In this document: positions 4,762-53,763 of the stretch, in pieces
Position numbering within the stretch: the stretch's first letter is position 1
Layout: each line of letters starts with the position of its first letter
From: Myxococcota bacterium
Lineage (GTDB): Bacteria; Myxococcota_A; UBA9160; UBA4427
Assembly (NCBI GenBank): GCA_050618075.1
Contig: JBNLVL010000004.1
Coordinates: 461,587-525,586 of the forward strand
DNA length: 64,000 nucleotides
Direction: 5' to 3'
Program-made: the position numbers and the translations under genes
The notes under the pieces: model-generated
What the model was told of the DNA's origin: nothing
Database searches by the model: none
What the model saw: only the letters and a program-made list of their open reading frames with translations

Positions 4762-6074
4762 GCGAAGCGGACGTGTCGACCCTCTCCCAGTCCGCTCGCC
4801 GGTGCGCCGGCCGCCTCCGCCAGGGGCGATGGCCGGCCCTGCTGCTGTTGGCGACCGTCCTGGCGTCCACCGCGCACGGCGTCGAGAGCGCGGTCGAAGC
4901 CGGCGGCAAACGCACCGATGCGGTGATCCTCGACCCGGAACGCGTCCCCTCCCTCGAGGGCCTGATCCGCGCCGGGCTCGAACGCTCCGCCCACGGCGAC
5001 CTCGCCGGCGCGGAGCGCTACTGGGCGCAGATCCGCGAGTACCACCCGGACCATCCGGCCGGCCCGCTCTTCGAGATGCAGACCCTCGAAGCCCGCAAGT
5101 CGCTCGACTACCAGGACGACCACTACGACGCGCAGCTGCGCGCCAAGGCCGAGGAGGCCATCACGCTCTCGGAGGAGTGGCTGGAGCGGGCTCCGGACGA
5201 CCCCCAGGCCCACTTCTATGCCGGCCAGGCGAAGGTCGAGATGATGATCGTGGCGGGGGTGGCGGGCCAGTACTACAAGGCGGGCACCATCGGCGAGCAG
5301 GGCCGCAAGCACCTGGAGCGGGCCCTCGAGCTCGACCCCGACCTCGTGGACGCCAAGCTCCCGCTCGGGAGCTACCACTACTATACGGCCATCGCCACGC
5401 GCTTCATCCGCCTCTTCAGCTGGCTCTGGTTCGTCCCCACCGGCGACCGCGAGACGGGCCTCGCCTACATCGAAGAGGTCAGCCGAAAGGGCGACCTCTA
5501 TCGCTTCGACGCCTCCGCGCAGCTCGCGAACATCCTGCTCTACATGGAGGACGCCCCAGAGCGGGCCGCGCCGATCCTCGAGCGCCTGCACCGGACCCAC
5601 CCGGAGAGCGGCTACCTGGCGTTCGAGGTGGTGGAGCTGAAGATGATCGAGGGCGACTACGCGGGCACGGTGGAGAAGGCCCTCGAGCTCGAGCAGAGCC
5701 ACGGGAGCCAGTTCGGGGACGCGACCCGTCGCACCATGGCGAAGATCTGGCGTGCGCGCGCCGAGCTGCACCGGGGTCATCCCGAGAGGACCCGGGCGAT
5801 CCTCGCCGAGATCGATGCGAGCGGACAGGACCTGTCCGGCTGGTGCCGCCGCTGGATGCTGCTCACCCGGGGCAACCTCGAGGACCTGCTCGACCGGCGC
5901 GACGAGGCCGTCGAGTACTACGAGGACGTCGTCGCCCTCGAGTCCCGATGGCAATCGGGCCGCTCCGTCGAGCTGGCGCGGCAGTTGCTGGAGACCCCGT
6001 TCCGCCTGGATGCAGCCGCGCAGCCGCCGTTCGTGAGCGCTTCGCCTCCGGGCGCCCCGCCGGCCCGGAACTGA
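4758..6074 (+). CDS. exported TPR-like repeat protein (hypothetical)
   Basis: ATG 4758 overlaps the PhyH stop (ATGA). Signal-like segment WPALLLLATVLASTAHG. Helical repeat content (ERYWAQIREYHPDHP, HLERALELDPDLVDAK). No enzymatic motif recognised. Confidence 0.6.
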   Translation: MSEADVSTLSQSARRCAGRLRQGRWPALLLLATVLASTAHGVESAVEAGGKRTDAVILDPERVPSLEGLIRAGLERSAHGDLAGAERYWAQIREYHPDHPAGPLFEMQTLEARKSLDYQDDHYDAQLRAKAEEAITLSEEWLERAPDDPQAHFYAGQAKVEMMIVAGVAGQYYKAGTIGEQGRKHLERALELDPDLVDAKLPLGSYHYYTAIATRFIRLFSWLWFVPTGDRETGLAYIEEVSRKGDLYRFDASAQLANILLYMEDAPERAAPILERLHRTHPESGYLAFEVVELKMIEGDYAGTVEKALELEQSHGSQFGDATRRTMAKIWRARAELHRGHPERTRAILAEIDASGQDLSGWCRRWMLLTRGNLEDLLDRRDEAVEYYEDVVALESRWQSGRSVELARQLLETPFRLDAAAQPPFVSASPPGAPPARN

Positions 6075-8011: not shown

Positions 8012-8809
8012 TCAGAAGACCAGGGCGACCAGATCGCGCAGCCCTTCGGCGATCTCGCCGTCGTCGGTCAGCGCTTCGACGATCGCGTGGTTGCAGGCCG
8101 CGCGGCCGGGGACGCCCGCCCGCAGGAGTCGCGCGGCGTTGACCAGCAGGCGCGTGGAAGGACGCTCGGCGAGCCCCAGCGCCTCGGCGCTCCGGAGCTT
8201 CCCGGCCAGCGCCACCAGCTTTCGCGCCGCGCGCTCGTCGACATCGCTCTCGCCCACCACGATCTCGACCTCGACGTCGGGCTCCGGATAGTCGAAGGCG
8301 AGCGCCAGGAACCGCTGGCGCGTCGAGGGCTTCAGCTCCTTCAGCCCGCGCTGGTAGCCCGGGTTGTAGCTCACGACGAGCATGAACTCGTCGGGCGCCG
8401 AGAGCAGCTCGTCGTGGCGGTCGACGAACAGGAAGCGCCGGTGGTCGGTGAGCGGGTGCACGACCACGATCACGTCGCTCCGCGCCTCCGCGAACTCGTC
8501 GAGGTAGAGGATGGCTCCGCTGCGGACCGCGCGGGTCACCGGGCCGTCCTGCCAGACCGTCTCCCCCCCCTCGAGCAGGTAGCGTCCGGTCAGGTCGATG
8601 GCGGACGTCTCGTCGTGGCAGGCCACGGTGACCAGCGGGCGTCCGAGCCGGGCCGCCATGTGCTCGACCAGCCGCGACTTGCCGCAGCCCGTCGGCCCCT
8701 TGAGCAGCAGCGGCGTGCGCAGCTCGAAGGCCCGTTGGAAGACCTCGCACTCGTCGCCGACCGGCCTGTACCAGGGGAGCTCCGATCCGGCGGCAGCCGG
8801 CATGCCCAT
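8012..8809 (-). CDS. norQ: NorQ (CbbQ/MoxR-type AAA+ ATPase)
   Basis: 265 aa. Walker A LLKGPTGCGKS, Walker B ILYLDEF. Colinear with CbbQ/NorQ proteins and immediately downstream of norB. Confidence 0.9.
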   Translation of the reverse strand: MGMPAAAGSELPWYRPVGDECEVFQRAFELRTPLLLKGPTGCGKSRLVEHMAARLGRPLVTVACHDETSAIDLTGRYLLEGGETVWQDGPVTRAVRSGAILYLDEFAEARSDVIVVVHPLTDHRRFLFVDRHDELLSAPDEFMLVVSYNPGYQRGLKELKPSTRQRFLALAFDYPEPDVEVEIVVGESDVDERAARKLVALAGKLRSAEALGLAERPSTRLLVNAARLLRAGVPGRAACNHAIVEALTDDGEIAEGLRDLVALVF

Positions 8810-8816
8810 CTCCCGC

Positions 8817-10151
8817 TCAGCCCCGGCCGACCATCTCGTCGGAGGGGAGTCCGTACTGCACGAAGTTCGCGATGAACATCACCACTCCGAGGGTCAGCAG
8901 GCAGGCCGCCAGGACCAGACCGAAGAAGTGGACTTCGATGGCCTCCTGCACCGCGAGGAAGTCCATCCCGAGCTTCCGCTCCATGTAGACCTGGGCGATG
9001 CCCGCCACGGCGAAGGCGCCGGTCATGCCCATCATGCCCACGTTGGACGTCCAGAAGGCCCACTCCGGGAGCCAGCCCACGAAGAGCTTGCGACCGGTCA
9101 TGTTCGGCATGGCGTAGGAGATCATCGCGAGCACGACCATCGCGTAGGCGCCCCAGAAGGCCATGTGACCGTGCATGGCCGTGATGATCGTCCCGTGGGT
9201 CCACAGGTTCACGGCGGGGAGGGTGTGCGAGAACCCGAGGAAGCCCGCCCCGACGAAGGACATCACGCCGCAGCCCACCGTCCAGAAGAGTGCGATCCGG
9301 TTGGGGTGGTTCATGCCGCCGCGCCGGGCCATGGTCACCGCGTAGAGCGCCATACCGAGGAAGGCCAGCGGCTCGAGGGCGGAGAAGACGGCGCCGATGG
9401 GCAGCCAGTACTCGGGAGCGCCGATGTAATAGTAGTGGTGGCCCGTTCCCAGGATGCCGGACAGGAACGTGAAGCCGACGATGACGTACAGCCACTTCTC
9501 GATGAGCTCGCGGTCGACACCGGTGAGCTTGATCAGGAGGAACGACAGGATCCCGCCCATGATCAGCTCCCACACCCCCTCGACCCAGAGATGCACGACC
9601 CACCAGCGGAAGTAGGAGTCCACGACCTGGCTCTCGAAGGTGATCATGCCGGGCAGGTAGAGGAGCGCGGCCGCGGTCAGCCCCATGAGCAGGACGCTGC
9701 CGGTCGTCGTGAACCGGGGCGCTCCCAGCGCGGTGCGGCCGATGACGTAGAGGAAGAGCAGCACGTCCACGACGACCAGATAGTCGAGCGGCCGGGGAAT
9801 CTCGAGGAACTTCCTGCCTTCCCACCATCCGAACTGGAACCCGACGAGCGCGATCACGCCCACGATGACGAGCGCCGCCCACTGCAGGATCGCGAGCTTC
9901 TCGCTGTGGAGCTCCCGGTCGGCCTCTTCGGGCACGATGTAGTAGGCGGCCCCCATGAAGCCGGAGAGCAGCCACACCACGAGCAGGTTGATGTGCGACG
10001 TCCGAGCGACGTTGAAGGGGATGTAGTCGTGCAGGACATCGAAGCCCATGTGGGCGAAGCCCATGATGAAGCCGAACACGATCTGCAGGACGAGGAGAGC
10101 CAGGGAAGTGGCGAAGAACAGGTAGGCGACTCGCTGTGAGCGGAACTTCAT
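8817..10151 (-). CDS. norB: nitric oxide reductase large subunit NorB (cNOR, haem-copper oxidase superfamily)
   Basis: 444 aa, polytopic membrane protein. Conserved His/Glu blocks: TSHINLLVVW, VVHLWVEGVWE, GTGHHYYYIG, MHGHMAFWGAY. Confidence 0.95.
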   Translation of the reverse strand: MKFRSQRVAYLFFATSLALLVLQIVFGFIMGFAHMGFDVLHDYIPFNVARTSHINLLVVWLLSGFMGAAYYIVPEEADRELHSEKLAILQWAALVIVGVIALVGFQFGWWEGRKFLEIPRPLDYLVVVDVLLFLYVIGRTALGAPRFTTTGSVLLMGLTAAALLYLPGMITFESQVVDSYFRWWVVHLWVEGVWELIMGGILSFLLIKLTGVDRELIEKWLYVIVGFTFLSGILGTGHHYYYIGAPEYWLPIGAVFSALEPLAFLGMALYAVTMARRGGMNHPNRIALFWTVGCGVMSFVGAGFLGFSHTLPAVNLWTHGTIITAMHGHMAFWGAYAMVVLAMISYAMPNMTGRKLFVGWLPEWAFWTSNVGMMGMTGAFAVAGIAQVYMERKLGMDFLAVQEAIEVHFFGLVLAACLLTLGVVMFIANFVQYGLPSDEMVGRG

Positions 10152-10161
10152 GGTGGCACTC

Positions 10162-10851
10162 CTACTCGAGGGTCCGGAGCCAGGCGACCAGCTCGGCGCG
10201 GATATCGTCGGACATGTCCAGCTTCGGCATCGCGGTTCCGGGCTTCACCGACGGTGGGTCGGCGAGCCAGCGATCGAGCTCCTGGGCGGTGAACCGGTTG
10301 GCCACTCCGTCGAGCGCCGGCCCGACGGCGCCGCCCTGGCCGCCCACCGCGTGGCAGGCCACACATACCGAGTCGAAGTAGGCGGGCCTGGGCCCGGTCG
10401 CGGCCGCGCTGACCTCGACCACCGACACCGCGGGCGCCAGGTCCGGGTCGGGCGGGAACCCGTTGGTGTCGATCTCGCCGATCCAGCCCAGGAACGCGAT
10501 CACGTCGGAGATCTGCTCCTCGCTGAAGTCGTACTGGACCATGCGACGCTGGCCCGGGTACATCGCCTGGGGATCGCGCAGGAAGATCCGGATCCACTCG
10601 GCGCCACGGCGCTCGACGACCCGGGTGAGCTCGGGCGCGTAGTACGCCCCCTCGCCGAGGATCGTGTGGCAGCCCATGCAGTTCTCGTTCTCCCAGATCA
10701 TCTTGCCGCGCACCACGGACTCGGTCAGGCGATCCGAGTTCTGCCGCTCGGGAATCTCCCGCAGCGTGTCCACCGTGAGCAGCAGGAAGATGACGGAGAA
10801 GAAGATCGTGCCACCCAGGAAGAAAAGGCGCGCCTGCGACTTGCTGAGCAT
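10162..10851 (-). CDS. norC: NorC cytochrome c subunit fused to a second C-terminal class-I cytochrome c domain (di-haem)
   Basis: 229 aa. The N-terminal TM segment plus WENENCMGCHTILGEGAYYAPEL equals canonical NorC, through ~aa 137. An extra ~90 aa carries a second CXXCH (CVACH) and a Met-ligand context, GTAMPKL. Confidence 0.9.
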   Translation of the reverse strand: MLSKSQARLFFLGGTIFFSVIFLLLTVDTLREIPERQNSDRLTESVVRGKMIWENENCMGCHTILGEGAYYAPELTRVVERRGAEWIRIFLRDPQAMYPGQRRMVQYDFSEEQISDVIAFLGWIGEIDTNGFPPDPDLAPAVSVVEVSAAATGPRPAYFDSVCVACHAVGGQGGAVGPALDGVANRFTAQELDRWLADPPSVKPGTAMPKLDMSDDIRAELVAWLRTLE

Positions 10852-10992
10852 GAATCCAGCTCCTGTTTCCGGTCGAATTCGAGGTCGGAATCGGTGCGCT
10901 CGCGGCCCCGTTCCGCACCCGACGGCCCCACTCTACTCTCCAGACCTGCATCCTCGGGCCGGGAAGAGAGCGGGGGTCCAGCGGATCGCAGA

Positions 10993-11016
10993 GATTATCA
11001 TGCGAACATGATGATT
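10993..11016. promoter_or_regulatory. candidate NsrR/Rrf2 operator: imperfect 10-4-10 inverted repeat GATTATCATG-cgaa-CATGATGATT
   Basis: AT-rich palindrome (core ATCATG-N4-CATGAT is perfect) in the norC/nsrR divergent region. It ends 15 nt upstream of a TAGAAT -10-like hexamer at 11032-11037. Confidence 0.4.
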
Positions 11017-11062
11017 GAACGGGGCGTCGTGTAGAATCGGTGCGGCGAAAGGACCCCACTCG

Positions 11063-11470
11063 ATGTTTCTCTCGCAGACGAGCCGCTACGCGCTGCAGGC
11101 GGCCTGCTTCCTGGCGGCGCACTGGGACGAAGATCGCCCGATCACCGTGGGCGACATCGCCAACGAGCTCGACGTGCCGCGCAACTACCTGTCGAAGACG
11201 CTCCACCAGCTGGCCCGCCACGGGGTGCTGCACTCGGAGCGGGGCGCCAGAGGTGGGTTCCGACTCGCCGCTCCTCCCGGAGAGATCCGGCTCTCCCAGA
11301 TCGTCCGGCTCGTGGAGCCGGACATCGGCGCGCGGTACTGCCTGCTCGGCCGCCCGGCCTGCAGAGACGACGACCCCTGCCCGGCTCACGCGCGCTGGCG
11401 GAGCATGGCCGAGGACTTCAATCGCTTCCTCGAAGAGACCACGCTCGCGGACCTGGCCCGCAACGGGTAG
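11063..11470 (+). CDS. Rrf2 family transcriptional regulator, NsrR-like
   Basis: MFLSQTSRYALQAACFLA... is a typical Rrf2 winged-HTH N-terminus. Three clustered Cys (YCLLGRPACRDDDPC, C-x7-C-x5-C) could hold an Fe-S sensor. Divergent from norCBQD. Confidence 0.8.
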   Translation: MFLSQTSRYALQAACFLAAHWDEDRPITVGDIANELDVPRNYLSKTLHQLARHGVLHSERGARGGFRLAAPPGEIRLSQIVRLVEPDIGARYCLLGRPACRDDDPCPAHARWRSMAEDFNRFLEETTLADLARNG

Positions 11471-47797: not shown

Positions 47798-49132
47798 TCA
47801 GCTCCCCTCGGATCGGGAGGCCTGCGGGAGCGTCAACGCGAGCACGCCGAGCCCGAGCAGCATGGAGAGCGCCGAGGCGGCGAAGACGCCGATCTTCGCG
47901 GCGTCGAGCAGGTCGGGTCCCAGCGCCAGCTCGCTGATGAAGAGCGCCATGGTGAAGCCGATGCCGGCCAGCACGCCGCCGCCGACGATGGAGCCCCAGC
48001 CCAGCCCGACCGGGAGCTGGGCGATGCCCAGGCGCACGGCCACGAAAACGAACGCGACGATTCCCAGGGGCTTGCCGAGCATGAGGCCCGCTGCCACGGC
48101 GAAGGCGACCGGGTCGGCGAGGGACCGGGGATCCAGCGGCACGCCGGCGTTGGCCAGCGCGAAGACCGGCATGATGACGAACCCCACCCAGGGGTGGAGG
48201 CGGTGCTCGACGTACTCGAGAGGCGAGACCGCCTGGAGGGTCGCCTGCCGGAACTGGGACAGGCGATCGGCCCGACCGACCGGATCGTCCCAGCGCCCGA
48301 GCGCCTGGCCCTCGATGGCGCGGTCGAGGATGTTGCGAAGCAGGGGCTGGCCCACCCGCGGCTGGGGCGGCGTCATCAGGCCGAGGATCACGCCGGCGAT
48401 GGTGGCGTGGATGCCCGACTCGTGGAATCCGAACCAGGTCAGCGCGCCCACCGCCGTGTAGACCGCGAAGCTCCGCACCCCCAGGCGCGCCATCACGGCC
48501 ACGATCGCGATCCCGGCGGCGCCCAGGATCAGGGCTTCGGTGTCGATCGAGCTCGTGTAGCCGATGGCGATCACGAGGATGGCTCCGATGTCGTCCACGA
48601 TGGCCAGCGAGAGCAGCATCACCCGCAGTCCGTGGGGCACCCTCGAGCCGAGCACCGCGAGGCAGCCCACCACGAACGCGATGTCGGTGGCCATGGGGAT
48701 GCCCCAGCCGGCCTGGCCGGGCTGACCCGACTGGAGCACCAGGTAGATGCCCGCCGGGACGATCATGCCGCCGAGGGCGCCGGCCACGGGGAGCGCCGCC
48801 TTGCGCAGGCTGCCCAGCTCCCCGATCGCGATCTCGCGCTTGACCTCGAGTCCGATGACGAAGAAGAAGACGGCCATCAGGCCGTCGTTGATCCAGTGCT
48901 TCAGCGAATGGGACACCTGGAAGTCGCCGAACCCGAAGCCCACCGGCGTCTTCCAGAACGACAGGTAGGCCGCGGACCAGTCCGAGTTCGCCATCATCAG
49001 GGCGATGGCGGTGCAGGCGAGCAGGACGCCTCCGCTGGCCGCCTCGATGTGGAGGAAGTGCGCGATGGGAACCGTGATCCGGTGGATCGGTTCCCTGGGA
49101 AGCGGCAGCTCGATCTGATCGCGGGTGGCCAT
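47798..49132 (-). CDS. nhaA: Na+/H+ antiporter NhaA
   Basis: WINDGLMAVFFFVIGLEVKRE and SLAIVDDIGAILVIA (the DD motif) are NhaA hallmarks. ATG 49132. Confidence 0.95.
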   Translation of the reverse strand: MATRDQIELPLPREPIHRITVPIAHFLHIEAASGGVLLACTAIALMMANSDWSAAYLSFWKTPVGFGFGDFQVSHSLKHWINDGLMAVFFFVIGLEVKREIAIGELGSLRKAALPVAGALGGMIVPAGIYLVLQSGQPGQAGWGIPMATDIAFVVGCLAVLGSRVPHGLRVMLLSLAIVDDIGAILVIAIGYTSSIDTEALILGAAGIAIVAVMARLGVRSFAVYTAVGALTWFGFHESGIHATIAGVILGLMTPPQPRVGQPLLRNILDRAIEGQALGRWDDPVGRADRLSQFRQATLQAVSPLEYVEHRLHPWVGFVIMPVFALANAGVPLDPRSLADPVAFAVAAGLMLGKPLGIVAFVFVAVRLGIAQLPVGLGWGSIVGGGVLAGIGFTMALFISELALGPDLLDAAKIGVFAASALSMLLGLGVLALTLPQASRSEGS

Positions 49133-49188
49133 GGAATGCTCGCGGCCATCGGGTATGGGACCTCCGGGCAGTCGCCCGGCCACTCTTC

Positions 49189-49380
49189 CTAGTCGGCTCC
49201 GGCGGGCCTCTTGACCATAGCAACGATCGCGAGCAGGACTCCCGACCCGAGGAGCGGGTGGCCGACGAAGGAGAAGACGATGGCCGACTGGCCGGTCGGC
49301 TCGACCGCCACCCAGAGCGCGATGGCCTGGGAGAGGAGGATCAGGATCGCCGCGAGGCGCGCGATGACGGCCCGGCCCAT
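49189..49380 (-). CDS. small (63 aa) two-TM membrane protein, translationally coupled to the CymA-like gene
   Basis: ATG 49380 overlaps the upstream stop (ATGA). MGRAVIARLAAILILLSQAIALWVAVEPTGQSAIVFSFVGHPLLGSGVLLAIVAMVKRPAGAD. Confidence 0.45.
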   Translation of the reverse strand: MGRAVIARLAAILILLSQAIALWVAVEPTGQSAIVFSFVGHPLLGSGVLLAIVAMVKRPAGAD

Positions 49381-50024
49381 CAGCCGCCCCCCGTCCCGGC
49401 TGCGGATCCGTTCAGCGCCTCCTGGGGGTGGGCCGGGGGATGACAGGCGCCGGCGCACCCCATCTCCCCGGAGAGCAGGGCCTGCTGGATCCCCTCGTCC
49501 CGGTGGGTCTCCACCGCGCGGAAGGGGAGCGCCCCGGCATGGCAGCTCAGGCAGGCGTCGATGTCGAAGGTGCCGTGGTGGGAGAGCGGCAGCTCGAAGT
49601 CGCCGGTGACCGTGTTGAGCATGTGCTTCACCCCGGCGAGCTTGGCGTCGAAGCCGCCCCAGATCCCGTAGCCGCTGTGGCACTGGTAGCAGGCATCATT
49701 GTGGGAGACGGCGCCGCGCTGGTAGTGGGAGCCCGCGAGCGACTCCCCTTCGTCGCGCATGGCCTCCACCACGGGCGCCATCGTCTCGTGGCACGAGCCG
49801 CAGAACTCGACGGTCTTGGACTCCTCCAGCACGTGGAGATCCCCCAGGATGTAGGTGAAGACGGGCAGCAGCAGCAGCCCGGACGAGGCCACGGCCGCCG
49901 GCAACCTCGACCTCACCAGCACGACGAGCGCGAGCGCCATGCTGGGCAGCGCGCAGGCGAAGATCAGGATCCAGAGCCGGTGGGGCTCCGTGGGGTGGAC
50001 GAAGAGAGGGCCGAGCTCTTCCAC
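49380..50024 (-). CDS. membrane-anchored multihaem cytochrome c, NapC/NirT/CymA-like (3 CXXCH plus 1 CX3CH)
   Basis: 214 aa, GTG start. Two N-terminal hydrophobic segments. Haem motifs CGSCH, CYQCH, CLSCH and CAGACH. Immediately downstream of the porin gene. Confidence 0.75.
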   Translation of the reverse strand: MEELGPLFVHPTEPHRLWILIFACALPSMALALVVLVRSRLPAAVASSGLLLLPVFTYILGDLHVLEESKTVEFCGSCHETMAPVVEAMRDEGESLAGSHYQRGAVSHNDACYQCHSGYGIWGGFDAKLAGVKHMLNTVTGDFELPLSHHGTFDIDACLSCHAGALPFRAVETHRDEGIQQALLSGEMGCAGACHPPAHPQEALNGSAAGTGGG

Positions 50025-50034
50025 ACCCCGGAAG

Positions 50035-52290
50035 CTAGAACGTTATGACGGCCGTCGCAGTGAGGACGTGCGCCTGGTAGTCGTCGAGGGTGTCGGCCAG
50101 GAAGATGTCGGTCCCCCCGCGGTACGGCCCCAGATCATCGGTCCGGAAGTCGCGGATGAGGAAGTCCTCGTAGCGGTAGGCGGTGCGGATCTGAACGTGC
50201 TCGCTGATCGTGGTGGTCGCCTCGGCGCTCACCACCTGCAGGATGTCCTTCACCGTCGGGTAGTCGTAGCCGATCGCCCCCGAGAGCTCGGGCGCCACGA
50301 GGGCCCGGTTGTCGGGGAGGCCCTCCGTGTCGGTCTTCTCCCAGGCGTGGTTGATCTCGTAGCCGAAGCGCAGGTCGAGCCGCTCCGGGATGGCCGCGAC
50401 GTCGAAGTGGATGCCGGCCGTGTGGGTCCGGGTGCGGGTCGTGCTCCGCCAGTTGTTGACCGCGTCGTCGGTCACGATCACGGGCGGCGGGCCGAACGTC
50501 CGCGAGCGGGATCGCGACCTCATCTTCCAGCTCGTCTTCTCGTAGCTGTAGTAGAGCCCCACGCCCATGCGGTCGCAGGCCTGCCAGTAGGCGTCCCAGC
50601 CGGCGAACCACGAGCTCTCGGTGTCGACCCCGTAGTTGCCGTCGTCGTCGTAATCGTAGTAGCGGAGGCCGCCGGAGAAGGTGATCTCGACGGTCTCGTC
50701 GGGCCGGACGAAGACCAGCGCGTCGGCCAGGTGACCGTCGCGCTCGGCCTGGTCGAACTTGCGCAGGTCGCTGGTCTCACCGGCCGGATTCTGGTCGCCC
50801 GGTGTGTCCAGGAGGCGATCGACGTAGGAGTAGGTGTCGTAGTCGTCCCCGTCCCGGCGCTGGAAGGAGTAGGAGCCCTGGAACTTGACCTGCTCGTCGA
50901 TCTTCCAGTCGAGCTTGGCCGTGGGACCGTGCTCCCAGAGGTCGCGCACCTGGCGGTCGGCGCTGCGCCGCCAGTACTCGAAGCCGTAGCCCAGATGGCC
51001 CGTCACGTCGTCGGTGATGCGGTAGGAGGCCTTGGCGTCCGCGTTGTGGGTGGTGAAGTCGTTGAAGACGGTGGTGTGGGCGGTCGCGTCGATGGAGCCG
51101 TCGTTCACGACCTCCTCGTCGAACCGGATGTCGTCGGTGTCGTTGTCGTAGTCGTAGTACCGGTAGCGGGCGGTGAGGTTGAGCCGAGGCGTCGGCCGGG
51201 CGGTGGCCACCACGTTCGCGAGCAGCGTGTGGACCTCTCCGTCGAGACTGCCCTCGGGAAGCGTCGGGCTCACCAGGGCGGTGTTGATGGTGTGGGGCAG
51301 GAAGTCCTCGTCCTGCATGCGGATGCCGTAGGCGAAGCTGCCGGTCACGCGGGCCGGGAAATCCGTGGGCAGGACGGTCGACAGCGACAGGTTCACCATG
51401 TGGGCGGAGTTGTCCGGGTCGAGGGCGCTCCGGCCCCGGCTGGGCGAGCCGTCGGCGTCGGCGGCGATGAGGGGATTGTCGGCCGTGACGCCCCGGATGG
51501 CGTTCTCGTAGAAGGAGCCCCGGTAGTCGAGACCGATGCTGGCGGGCCCCACGACGTACTCGCCGCCTGCGGAGAGCTCGTGGGTCTGGTCGTCCACCGG
51601 AGCGGCGAAGTCGACGAAGTTGCCCCCGGGTGTTCCCCAGTCCATGGCGAAGGCGCGGCTGCCCTTGCGGTCCTGGAGCTCGTAGCGGCTGAACAGGGTG
51701 AGCCCCTCGATGGGCCTCACCTCGATGCCGCCCCCGCCCTCGATCTGCCGGAAGCGGAGGTCGACGTGACCGGCGCTCTGCAGCTCCTGGGCGAGCTGGG
51801 CGGACGGGTCGGCCGCGCCCGCGATGCGGGACTGCACGTTCGCCGGCAGCATGAACTCGTTGCCGCCCTTTCGGGTGTAGAGGCTCATCGCATCGTTGCT
51901 GAAGACCTGGGGCAGCTCCTTGTAGAAGAGGTCGATCTTGAACCGGCCGTAGCGCCCGAACTCCGTCTCGTAGCGCTGATCTTCGTATCCGGGGTTCTCA
52001 CCGCGTCCGCGCAGGAAGTAACGGCCCTCTTCGTCCTCGACCAGGAACTCGAAGCCGCCGAAGACGCCTTCCCCGAGGTCCCGGTACTTCTCGAACTGGG
52101 TCTCCGAGTCGTCGCCCCAGGTCGAACGACCTCCGATCTCGACCTCGCCCGAGACCACGACGGGCAGCCCGGGCACCTCCTGCTCGGCCGCCGCCGGTCC
52201 CGCGAGCGTCCAGACCGCTGCGCCCACGGCGAGAGAGAGGCCGATCCATCGCTTCACGATCGTCGACATCGCGTCTCTTCCCCCCTTCAT
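50035..52290 (-). CDS. MtrB/PioB/MtoB family outer-membrane beta-barrel (porin of a porin-cytochrome complex)
   Basis: ~750 aa with a signal peptide ending LAGPAAA-EQE. Alternating Tyr/Asp/Gly-rich strands (RYRYYDYDND, LRYYDYDDDGNYG) and a C-terminal ...ATAVITF. ATG 52290 forms ATGA with the decahaem gene stop. ATG 52269 is the alternative. Confidence 0.8.
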   Translation of the reverse strand: MKGGRDAMSTIVKRWIGLSLAVGAAVWTLAGPAAAEQEVPGLPVVVSGEVEIGGRSTWGDDSETQFEKYRDLGEGVFGGFEFLVEDEEGRYFLRGRGENPGYEDQRYETEFGRYGRFKIDLFYKELPQVFSNDAMSLYTRKGGNEFMLPANVQSRIAGAADPSAQLAQELQSAGHVDLRFRQIEGGGGIEVRPIEGLTLFSRYELQDRKGSRAFAMDWGTPGGNFVDFAAPVDDQTHELSAGGEYVVGPASIGLDYRGSFYENAIRGVTADNPLIAADADGSPSRGRSALDPDNSAHMVNLSLSTVLPTDFPARVTGSFAYGIRMQDEDFLPHTINTALVSPTLPEGSLDGEVHTLLANVVATARPTPRLNLTARYRYYDYDNDTDDIRFDEEVVNDGSIDATAHTTVFNDFTTHNADAKASYRITDDVTGHLGYGFEYWRRSADRQVRDLWEHGPTAKLDWKIDEQVKFQGSYSFQRRDGDDYDTYSYVDRLLDTPGDQNPAGETSDLRKFDQAERDGHLADALVFVRPDETVEITFSGGLRYYDYDDDGNYGVDTESSWFAGWDAYWQACDRMGVGLYYSYEKTSWKMRSRSRSRTFGPPPVIVTDDAVNNWRSTTRTRTHTAGIHFDVAAIPERLDLRFGYEINHAWEKTDTEGLPDNRALVAPELSGAIGYDYPTVKDILQVVSAEATTTISEHVQIRTAYRYEDFLIRDFRTDDLGPYRGGTDIFLADTLDDYQAHVLTATAVITF

Positions 52291-53237
52291 CGCGTGAACA
52301 GGTTGCCCGACGGATGGTTGCTGCCGTGGATCTTCTGGTGGCAGTTCAGGCACTGCTTGCCCACGGCGAACCGGTTGTCGCGGTCATAGGTGTTCGAGGG
52401 GTGCAGAGTATGGATGTGGCACGACTGACAGAGCCGGAGGCTCGGGGCCTTCAGCATGTTCGCGCGGGTGCTGCCGTGGGGGACGTGGCAGTTGAGGCAG
52501 CTCTCGTTGACCGGAGCGTGCTCCCAGAGGAAGGGCCCGCGCTTCTCGGCGTGGCACTCGTAGCAGTTCTCGTTGACGGTGACGGCGGAGACCAGCGAAG
52601 CCGTGACGGTTCCGTGAGGATTGTGACAGCTCCCGCAGTTCATGTAGCCCTCGCCGCCGGCCCCGGCCCGGCCCGGGCGCGTGGGCATGTGCGACCGGCG
52701 GTTCATCTGCGAGCGCGGCATCGGGTGGCAGCTCGAGCACAGCGCCATCTGGCTCGAGTGGGTGAGCATGGCGTCGTCGGACCTGGGCTGCTTCACATCG
52801 TGACAGGTCGTGCACGCGTGCCCGCGCGCCTGGTGGGGGCTGGCCTCCCAGTAGCGCTGGGTCCCGCCCTCGTGGCACTGGAGACAGGTCTCGTTCTCCC
52901 GCGCGACGTGGGCCGGGTCGTCGCTGCCGAAGACGACCCAGTCGGGTCCTCCGCTGCCCTGGCCGCCCCCGGCGTCCACGTGGGCCTGGCCCGGCCCGTG
53001 GCAGGCCTCGCAGCCCTTCTTCGCCAGGGCGTTCGGCGCGTTCTTCTCGTTCAGGACCTTGGCGTGGATGGTGTGCGAATAGCTCTCCAGGACGTCCTCG
53101 TGGCATGCGGTGCACACCGCGTCGCCCGCATAGCCGCCGCTCTCCTGGGCGGACGCGGGCGGCGAGGCCGCGAGGGCGACGCAGGCGATCAGCAGGGAGA
53201 GGCGAAATGCACGACCGAGCGGGCGGATCTCGGACAT
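52287..53237 (-). CDS. periplasmic decahaem c-type cytochrome, MtrA/MtoA/PioA/DmsE family
   Basis: 316 aa from ATG 53237 (GAGGAG SD) with a signal peptide. Exactly ten CXXCH motifs. The C-terminal string CYECHAEKRGPFLWEHAPVNESCLNCHVPHGS...LCQSCH...CLNCHQKIHGSNHPSGNLFTR is colinear with MtrA. Confidence 0.9.
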   Translation of the reverse strand: MSEIRPLGRAFRLSLLIACVALAASPPASAQESGGYAGDAVCTACHEDVLESYSHTIHAKVLNEKNAPNALAKKGCEACHGPGQAHVDAGGGQGSGGPDWVVFGSDDPAHVARENETCLQCHEGGTQRYWEASPHQARGHACTTCHDVKQPRSDDAMLTHSSQMALCSSCHPMPRSQMNRRSHMPTRPGRAGAGGEGYMNCGSCHNPHGTVTASLVSAVTVNENCYECHAEKRGPFLWEHAPVNESCLNCHVPHGSTRANMLKAPSLRLCQSCHIHTLHPSNTYDRDNRFAVGKQCLNCHQKIHGSNHPSGNLFTR

Positions 53238-53466
53238 GGAGGGGATGGCTCCTCGTGGTGCGGAATTCACCCCGGATTCTGGCGACCGTTTCCCTTGGAA
53301 GTCAACCACCTGGGCGCGAAATCTGCGAGTCGTTCCGGTGCCGGGACGAACTCCGCGCGAGGTCGTATCGGAAACCACTCATTGCGCGCCCGCCCCTCGA
53401 CTTCACCGGGGCAGAAGGCATCATTGTGGCCGCGCCGAGGACGGCGGGATCGAAGGAGGAGAAGTG

Positions 53467-53763
53467 ATGCGAATGAGATGTCTTTCCGTTCTGGCGCTGC
53501 TCGTCGCGTGCACCTGGGCGCCGGCCGCGCTGGCCGACGGCGCCGCGCTGTACGCGGCGAACTGCTCGAGCTGCCACGGCGACGACGGCAAGGCCGGGAC
53601 CCCGGTCGGTAAGGCCATGAAGGTCCCGTCCCTGGCCGGCAGCGCGCCCTCGCTCGACAAGGTGAAGGCGACGGTGCGCGAGAACGCGAAGCACAAGGCC
53701 GTCTCGGGCAAGGTGGGTGACGCGGAGCTCGAGACCATCGCGGAGTACATGAAGTCGCTCTGA
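53467..53763 (+). CDS. monohaem class-I cytochrome c (MtoD-like position)
   Basis: 98 aa. AAGGAGGAG SD 5 nt upstream. Signal peptide MRMRCLSVLALLVACTWAPAALA, single CSSCH. Divergent from the decahaem gene. Confidence 0.8.
   Translation: MRMRCLSVLALLVACTWAPAALADGAALYAANCSSCHGDDGKAGTPVGKAMKVPSLAGSAPSLDKVKATVRENAKHKAVSGKVGDAELETIAEYMKSL

Follow-up and report, generated by a model that had tools for sequence, protein, structure and literature searches.

The present analysis concerns a five-gene cluster (49189–53763) in a 64,000-nt stretch of DNA from a Myxococcota bacterium (contig JBNLVL010000004.1, positions 461,587 to 525,586), which is hereafter called the window. We conclude with high confidence that this cluster encodes a trans-envelope electron conduit with a novel inner-membrane module. 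Its parts list across the outer membrane, the periplasm and the inner membrane, its operon organization, and its conservation as a unit could all be read from the sequences, and from these we infer the protein contacts, the coupling to the quinone pool (through remote NapC homology) and the direction of electron flow. The joint reading, namely a conduit with a quinone-linked inner-membrane module and a lean toward inward electron flow, was given a probability of roughly 0.55. The five genes listed in the original prediction were all found where it had placed them, and its caution that the direction of flow is not readable from the sequence still stands.

The outer-membrane part of the cluster was composed of a 316-aa periplasmic decahaem c-type cytochrome of the MtrA/MtoA/PioA/DmsE family (52287–53237, minus strand) and a 744-aa MtrB/PioB-family outer-membrane β-barrel porin (50035–52269, minus strand). 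The cytochrome carried exactly ten CXXCH motifs, in agreement with the earlier count, and its signal peptide was predicted to end in ...PPASA, with cleavage before QE. It scored 232.8 bits against TIGR03508 (DmsE family; cutoff 192.2), and its residues 38–316 aligned with residues 63–333 of Shewanella baltica MtrA (PDB ID: 6r2q_A; 196 bits, E = 7e-57). The colinearity with MtrA that had been claimed for the C-terminal half was thus borne out there, but was not limited to that half, as all ten haems aligned. The porin matched PF11854 (MtrB_PioB) at 1e-98 over profile positions 4–632 of 635, TIGR03509 with 323 bits (cutoff 240) and the MtrB of PDB 6r2q_B with an E value of 6e-18, and it ended in ...AVITF with the usual C-terminal Phe. 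With the curated cutoffs passed and the solved MtrA and MtrB aligned, the two proteins were assigned as an MtrAB/MtoAB/PioAB-type porin-cytochrome pair, as the original prediction had held. As such the pair is ordinary, being an automatically annotated, routine member of a very large family: the decahaem protein was 100% identical to the NCBI entry 'DmsE family decaheme c-type cytochrome [Myxococcota bacterium]', its homologues filled more than 7,600 clusters at E ≤ 1e-10 among the 8,000 candidates scored, and MtoA plus MtrB are routinely reported in metagenome-assembled genomes (PMC7005843; 10.1101/2022.03.26.485925).

In a neighbor-joining tree, the window decahaem protein grouped with those of related loci L002, L004–L007, L011, L017, L035 and L040. 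The two gammaproteobacterial MtrA references, which were the only ones included and served as outgroups (6R2Q and that of Photobacterium, L079), fell outside at 38–41% identity. The Photobacterium mtrCAB-cymA locus, obtained from a plasmid search, was used solely as an outgroup and for a check of the CXXC motif. In the latter check, Photobacterium MtrB was found to carry RCSDC; the window porin contained one Cys in all and no CXXC within its first 120 residues, and the same was true of all 20 related porins. Such an N-terminal CXXC was reportedly described by Wee and colleagues in 2014 in the MtrB of metal-reducing Gammaproteobacteria. Compared with the MtrCAB + CymA system of Shewanella and Vibrionaceae (PDB ID: 6R2Q), the window shares an MtrA colinear over ten haems (41% identity; 38% to Photobacterium MtrA) and a homologous MtrB, but differs from it in having no MtrC lipoprotein cytochrome, a porin without the CXXC of Photobacterium MtrB, and an inner-membrane partner that is not CymA.

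No MtrC/OmcA-type protein was encoded in the 64-kb window, which extends 49 kb to one side of the cluster and 10 kb to the other, because the sole haem-motif open reading frame (ORF) outside the cluster, at 10.2 kb, encoded a 229-aa dihaem cytochrome; the claim that a MtrC-type outer cytochrome is missing was thus upheld within these bounds. Nor did such a gene stand beside mtrAB in the syntenic relatives with 79%, 68%, 60% and 55% decahaem identity. The name of the best-matching NCBIfam model, 'DmsE family', would suit a DmsEF-type conduit feeding an outer-surface terminal reductase (for dimethyl sulfoxide, iodate or similar) encoded elsewhere in the genome, although that model covers MtrA, MtrD, DmsE, MtoA and PioA alike. 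We regard this explanation as very improbable, given that no molybdopterin (DmsA-type) oxidoreductase or DmsB-type gene was present among the window genes scanned by Pfam or in L002 and L004, that the conserved partners of the conduit were cytochromes and a Rieske/cytochrome b complex, and that a molybdopterin gene was near in L005 only, there with a different NapC/NirT protein of 501 aa. Neither a dmsAB partner nor an adjacent MtrC-type gene, either of which the original prediction had named as pointing away from its assignment, was thus found within the window.

What sets this pathway apart is its pair of inner-membrane proteins together with a predicted bis-His monohaem partner, of which no prior description was found in the literature searched; in that literature, no account linked Binatia or Myxococcota to this module. 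The larger member of the pair, an inner-membrane tetrahaem cytochrome of 214 aa (49380–50024, minus strand), had originally been credited with four CXXCH motifs and a single transmembrane helix. Instead, we found three CXXCH motifs plus one CAGACH (CX3CH), and two predicted transmembrane helices (approximately residues 17–37 and 43–63) where NapC has one. In an alignment of 30 family members, CGSCH and two CxxCH motifs were invariant, the CxxxCH spacing was retained in 29 members, and four further invariant His residues were present, enough for four bis-His haems. The haems of NapC-type proteins are bis-His ligated, so that four of them are expected to go with four extra conserved His residues. 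An N-terminal LGPLF..P was likewise invariant and lay ahead of both transmembrane helices.

Database models matched this protein at best marginally. An identical NCBI entry bears the name "NapC/NirT family cytochrome c", and the protein passed Pfam PF03264 (NapC/NirT) by a small difference (24.8 versus a cutoff of 24.1) over its N-terminal half only. It stayed far below the NCBIfam cutoffs for NapC/NirT, TorC and NrfH, with 17 bits against TIGR02161 (cutoff 310.6), 16 against the NapC model PRK10617 (cutoff 349) and no match to the NrfH model, and no PDB sequence matched it at E ≤ 10. Comparison with Escherichia coli NapC gave 28% identity over 111 aa (BLASTP E = 4e-6; hhalign probability 89%), with the second helix corresponding to the sole helix of NapC and haems 1–3 in register. 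When the family profile was run without word filters against 1.84 billion representatives, 481 proteins were retrieved at E ≤ 0.001 and 45 at E ≤ 1e-30; since just 481 proteins were retrieved, the family is discrete and unmerged with the abundant NapC/NirT proteins. The protein thus resembles NapC, NirT, NrfH and CymA in its membrane helix followed by CXXCH haems 1–3 and in its four haem motifs with four extra conserved His, and differs from them in the additional N-terminal helix, the invariant LGPLF..P, the CX3CH at the fourth site and a small partner subunit. The closest precedent is Geobacter ImcH, in which a NapC-like core likewise stands behind extra helices, there several transmembrane helices (PMC6295460).

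ImoA, the former CymA of Sideroxydans ES-1, was considered as a candidate identity for the tetrahaem protein and rejected: the family scan returned no Sideroxydans protein, and ImoA is closely similar to NirT and NapC (64% and 54% identical, respectively; PMC9600427), whereas the similarity of the tetrahaem protein to them is remote. On this contrast, we assign the protein as a remote relative within the NapC/NirT superfamily and not as a CymA/ImoA orthologue; it would be an analogue of the inner-membrane component of the Mto pathway. The description 'CymA-like' accordingly survived insofar as a membrane haem protein remotely related to NapC is present, but not as worded, given the 17 bits against TIGR02161.

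The second member of the pair was a 63-aa membrane protein with two transmembrane helices (49189–49380, minus strand), whose ATG overlaps the upstream stop codon in a one-base TGATG junction, consistent with the coupling noted before. An ORF of 58–91 aa was found at or across the tetrahaem stop codon in 36 of the 42 tetrahaem-bearing loci. Its products had two hydrophobic helices and a basic tail, and the motif F-x-F-V-G-x-P was conserved in their loop. Because a coupled ORF is conserved in this many loci, we accept the 63-aa ORF as a probable real partner of the tetrahaem protein. The His within its motif was not conserved, and it is therefore no haem ligand. No Pfam or NCBIfam model matched the 63-aa protein. 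Between the window and L002, its codons showed 12 synonymous and 21 non-synonymous differences; the comparison with L004 was out of register.

The periplasmic partner was a divergently transcribed class I monohaem cytochrome c of 98 aa (53467–53763, plus strand), which matched PF13442 and PF00034. Among 27 aligned family members, the invariant positions were the CxxCH, two Gly and one His in a 'KHK' context, and the Met of GKAMKVP was not conserved. The best solved match of the family profile was Kuenenia c-552 (PDB ID: 7o38; E = 3e-16), in which the Met of "NKMPAW", at the axial-ligand position, stood opposite the invariant His. As the invariant His occupies the position of the axial Met and the upstream Met is unconserved, the cytochrome is predicted to be bis-His ligated. 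The same unusual ligation has been reported for MtoD, a class I monohaem cytochrome of +155 mV (PMC4412085) that was still called unique among Sideroxydans monohaem cytochromes in 2026 (PMC13390432). An identity with MtoD itself was rejected, as MtoD (4XXL) was absent among the best 60 PDB matches of either the single sequence or the family profile; the parallel is one in kind and not demonstrated descent. Within the signal peptide (53467–53530), an L-V-A-C stretch that could be a lipobox precedes the cleavage site between AALA and DG. Its Cys was unconserved in relatives, and the cytochrome is thus probably not a lipoprotein.

One of the two counterparts named in the original prediction was the Mto locus of Sideroxydans lithotrophicus ES-1 (mtoD-mtoA-mtoB-imoA-pmcA), then written with cymA. 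Both lack MtrC and pair a decahaem protein with an MtrB-type porin, and in both a small monohaem cytochrome of class I is encoded alongside and a membrane tetrahaem cytochrome within the cluster. They differ in that ImoA is a canonical NapC/NirT protein, whereas that of the window shows 28% identity to NapC across half of its length and has two helices and a CX3CH site; in the dedicated 63-aa partner; in the lack of a PmcA-like second monohaem gene in the window cluster; and in the host phylum. The component sets can therefore be called analogous, but they are not orthologous at the inner membrane. The other system named, PioABC of Rhodopseudomonas palustris, is likewise a two-component decahaem/porin conduit with a gene for a small periplasmic carrier, of high potential in the Pio case (PMC10654088, PMC6831781). 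PioA has a long N-terminal extension (PMC10654088), whereas the window decahaem protein is minimal at 316 aa, with its first CXXCH 11 residues past the predicted signal peptide cleavage site and no PioA-type extension. Furthermore, the Pio carrier is a high-potential iron-sulfur protein and that of the window a cytochrome c, and the Pio operon has no membrane cytochrome.

The four minus-strand genes for the decahaem protein, the porin, the tetrahaem protein and the small protein were packed tightly or overlapping, with one conserved promoter in front, in a window of approximately 70% G+C. The called porin start lies 17 nt past the decahaem gene, with the ribosome-binding site GGGGGGAAGAG in front of it; the ATGA coupling originally proposed here does exist for an alternative ATG at 52290, which overlaps the decahaem stop codon, but the called start is located 17 nt further downstream. 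The porin stop codon and the GTG start of the tetrahaem gene were separated by 10 nt. The same five products were obtained when genes were called independently on a 6.9-kb copy of this locus. The promoter was a sigma-70-like site, TTGACT-18 nt-CAGAAT (53276–53305, minus strand), approximately 40 nt upstream of the decahaem start codon. It was the sole promoter-like site in 47.6–54 kb, against a mean of 0.3 in shuffled sequences, and both of its hexamers were conserved in relatives L003 and L004. For FNR/CRP or Fur boxes, no convincing palindrome was seen in the divergent intergenic region, where the sigma-70-like promoter alone was conserved. Upstream of the decahaem gene in L006 (approximately 5900–5960) and L007 (approximately 5930–5990), relatives at 55–60% identity, a sigma-54-like TGACAC-N5-TTGCAT replaced this promoter, which suggests different regulation of the same conduit.

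The complete set of monohaem, decahaem, porin, tetrahaem and small-protein genes recurred at 79%, 68%, 60% and 55% decahaem identity, with the gene order kept in the first two. Scanning one genome per species with the tetrahaem family alignment yielded 68 loci, all from metagenome-assembled genomes, whose hosts were Binatia, Myxococcota/Polyangiaceae/Kofleriaceae, unclassified Deltaproteobacteria, Methylomirabilota, Acidobacteriota, Planctomycetota and others. In the 35 of these with at least 46% identity of the tetrahaem family (close loci), a monohaem homologue was nearby in 31; divergent transcription of the monohaem gene had been correctly foreseen, but the cytochrome is not of an odd family, since it is conserved with the module to this extent. 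An MtrA-like decahaem gene lay within 10 kb in 17 of the 35, 12 of which also had an MtrB/PioB porin; in five Binatia-type close loci, the decahaem gene came without such a porin. In L077 (3925–16445), the genes for the tetrahaem, small, decahaem, porin, monohaem, Rieske, cytochrome b and 11-haem proteins formed one co-directional block. A Rieske/cytochrome b/11-haem operon, whose third subunit was a cytochrome of 570–590 aa with 11 CXXCH motifs, was linked in at least nine close loci, often with the monohaem gene at its head, and the loci with a Rieske/cytochrome b operon beside the conduit included L077, L006, L007, L011, L012, L013, L024 and L027. In addition, an uptake-type NiFe hydrogenase with a cytochrome b subunit adjoined the module in L077, L012, L020 and L027.

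In the Binatia locus L019 (11160–17934), the tetrahaem/small/monohaem module stood beside a 904-aa MtrC/MtrF-like cytochrome (domain match 8e-47) with nine CXXCH and one CX3CH motifs. The same locus encoded a 12-haem cytochrome, an MtrA-like decahaem protein and a 691-aa signal-peptide protein ending in ...RRFDF; this putative outer-membrane protein had no Pfam match and no similarity to MtrB, and is a candidate for a new porin. The layout of L016, L028, L029 and L036 is likely to be similar. In L005 (9465–13026; 60% decahaem identity), the tetrahaem/small pair was replaced by the divergent 501-aa NapC/NirT-family protein mentioned above, which has six CXXCH motifs and is adjoined by the molybdopterin oxidoreductase gene; its N-terminal part resembled a distant branch of the tetrahaem family (L043, L065, L068 and L073). 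Five loci labeled 'uncultured Spirochaetales/Spirochaetaceae' (L011, L012, L014, L041 and L045) had clusters 55–65% identical to those of Myxococcota/Deltaproteobacteria, and these labels look doubtful.

By homology to 6R2Q, the decahaem protein would run through the MtrB/PioB-type barrel in the way seen in the solved MtrAB complex, giving a haem wire that spans the outer membrane and whose outer end would be directly exposed because there is no MtrC cap. The class I monohaem cytochrome, for which bis-His ligation is predicted, would shuttle electrons across the periplasm, and the 214-aa and 63-aa proteins would together form a four-helix, four-haem module that, like NapC, CymA or ImoA, would exchange electrons with the quinone pool. 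If electrons flow inward, the conduit would oxidize Fe(II), whether soluble or chelated, or some other extracellular donor, and the electrons would branch to the quinone pool and, via the monohaem cytochrome, to high-potential acceptors.

We lean toward such inward flow at even odds or barely better, and the conduit may well be reversible. Four features prompted this lean: the window has no MtrC/OmcA-type protein; its porin is without the N-terminal CXXC seen in the mtrCAB-type Photobacterium MtrB; the conduit is partnered by a small monohaem cytochrome of class I that has a His at the axial Met position; and in relatives the monohaem gene heads the Rieske/cytochrome b operon. Fe(III) reducers use multihaem periplasmic shuttles. 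The monohaem-headed Rieske/cytochrome b operons of the relatives also recall the pet operons of iron oxidizers (PMC10654088).

Several points weigh against this reading. The source is a metagenome-assembled genome, and Myxococcota include known Fe(III) reducers. The quinone coupling of the tetrahaem protein has remote NapC homology as its one basis, the bis-His ligation of the monohaem cytochrome was predicted from an alignment, and the AlphaFold2 model of the tetrahaem protein, built from 30 sequences, was poor (mean predicted local distance difference test score, pLDDT, 65). A Foldseek search of the PDB with that model returned no fold match, as is expected for haem-free models of multihaem proteins. 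As to direction, MtoA can work either way (10.1101/2022.03.26.485925), and NapC/NirT-type proteins are quinol dehydrogenases in vivo, including ImoA, which comes from an "oxidizer" pathway (PMC9600427). The uptake-type NiFe hydrogenase genes flanking the module in the four loci named above fit H2-driven export equally, and the Binatia relatives join the inner-membrane module with an MtrC/MtrF-like cytochrome.

The last three of these points also speak for electron export, in which the tetrahaem/small module would oxidize quinol and pass electrons through the monohaem cytochrome and MtrAB to soluble or chelated Fe(III), Mn, humics or another cell, in the anaerobic respiration of a heterotroph or hydrogen oxidizer. 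In the window itself, heterotrophic genes were present, among them those for beta-oxidation, and an autotrophy marker was not, and Myxococcota carry many putative reductive electron-transfer proteins, with Anaeromyxobacter as a demonstrated case (10.1101/2022.03.26.485925). Against export stand the lack of an extracellular cytochrome in the window to reach minerals, the periplasmic partner being a single small class I cytochrome and not a low-potential multihaem shuttle, and the porin lacking the CXXC that MtrB carries in the Photobacterium mtrCAB locus. On balance, export was considered unlikely, though by far the most serious of the alternatives weighed here, and inward flow through a quinone-linked module remains the preferred reading.

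Immediately downstream of the 63-aa gene was nhaA, encoding a Na+/H+ antiporter (47798–49183, minus strand). No terminator-like site was found between the two genes, and nhaA may be co-transcribed with the cluster. It also followed the tetrahaem-small pair in L002 (4330–5664), L004 (5891–7234) and the more distant L009 (6026–7321), the last of which has no decahaem or porin gene on its 9.5-kb contig. Genes for a Na+-translocating NADH:quinone oxidoreductase, Na+-NQR (nqrA-F and apbE), were located at 33–40 kb of the window, and a tie of the cluster and nhaA to Na+/H+ balance is possible. Pfam scans further identified lgt and genes for an epoxide hydrolase, a permease, a thiolase-like protein, a phosphoesterase, a CRP-family regulator and a 7TMR-DISM cyclase as neighbors. 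The CRP/FNR-family regulator and the 7TMR-DISM adenylate/guanylate cyclase (58664–61787), 5–8 kb from the cluster, occupied the same relative position in the 79%-identity relative (23.8-kb contig), and both are possible regulators of the cluster.

Such a setting bears on a non-respiratory role, in which the conduit would serve reductive iron acquisition, redox sensing or the disposal of excess reductant with no energy conservation. The housekeeping genes around it (lgt, nhaA, the permease and the epoxide hydrolase) and the conserved regulator and cyclase nearby would be compatible with this role, and PioAB has also been described in an iron stress response (PMC10654088). We nonetheless consider it improbable, because a dedicated pair of membrane proteins is strictly conserved with the conduit, and the operon links of the relatives to a Rieske/cytochrome b complex and a hydrogenase point to a respiratory chain.

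At 8012–11470, the window also contained a nitric oxide reductase (NOR)-like cluster consisting of a NorQ/CbbQ-type AAA protein, a 444-aa COX1-family subunit, the 229-aa cytochrome c, in which CXXCH occurs twice, and a divergent regulator of the Rrf2 family. Since canonical NorC is smaller (approximately 150 aa) and binds a single haem, the cluster may encode a non-canonical haem-copper NO or O2 reductase and not a plain cNOR. It lay 40 kb from the conduit genes; nothing ties the two together, and the link of the conduit to NO respiration raised in the original prediction is speculative.

MtrAB-type genes without MtrC are routinely counted in metagenomes as iron-oxidation markers. It is the inner-membrane end, however, that decides where the electrons go, and this end is known for a few cultured Proteobacteria only. 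Our data indicate that uncultured lineages of soil, sediment and groundwater, including Myxococcota, Binatia, Methylomirabilota and others, use a different, conserved pair of inner-membrane proteins. We tentatively propose, at somewhat under even odds, that the tetrahaem protein and its 63-aa partner constitute an undescribed quinone-linked NapC/NirT branch (2 + 2 helices, CX3CH) that, in uncultured Myxococcota, Binatia, Methylomirabilota and allies, would act as the dedicated terminus of conduits both of the MtrAB type and with MtrC, partnered by a bis-His class I cytochrome c and frequently also by a Rieske/cytochrome b/11-haem complex. To a specialist the MtrAB pair will be unsurprising, and it is the conserved inner-membrane module of these lineages that offers a useful, testable lead. 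If confirmed, the module would be recognizable by marker-gene tools, and knowledge of its redox properties would be of use in telling which way electrons flow in abundant uncultured groups; if the proposal is true, extracellular electron transfer would have a third solution at the inner membrane, in addition to those of CymA/ImoA and of CbcL/MtoC/ImcH.

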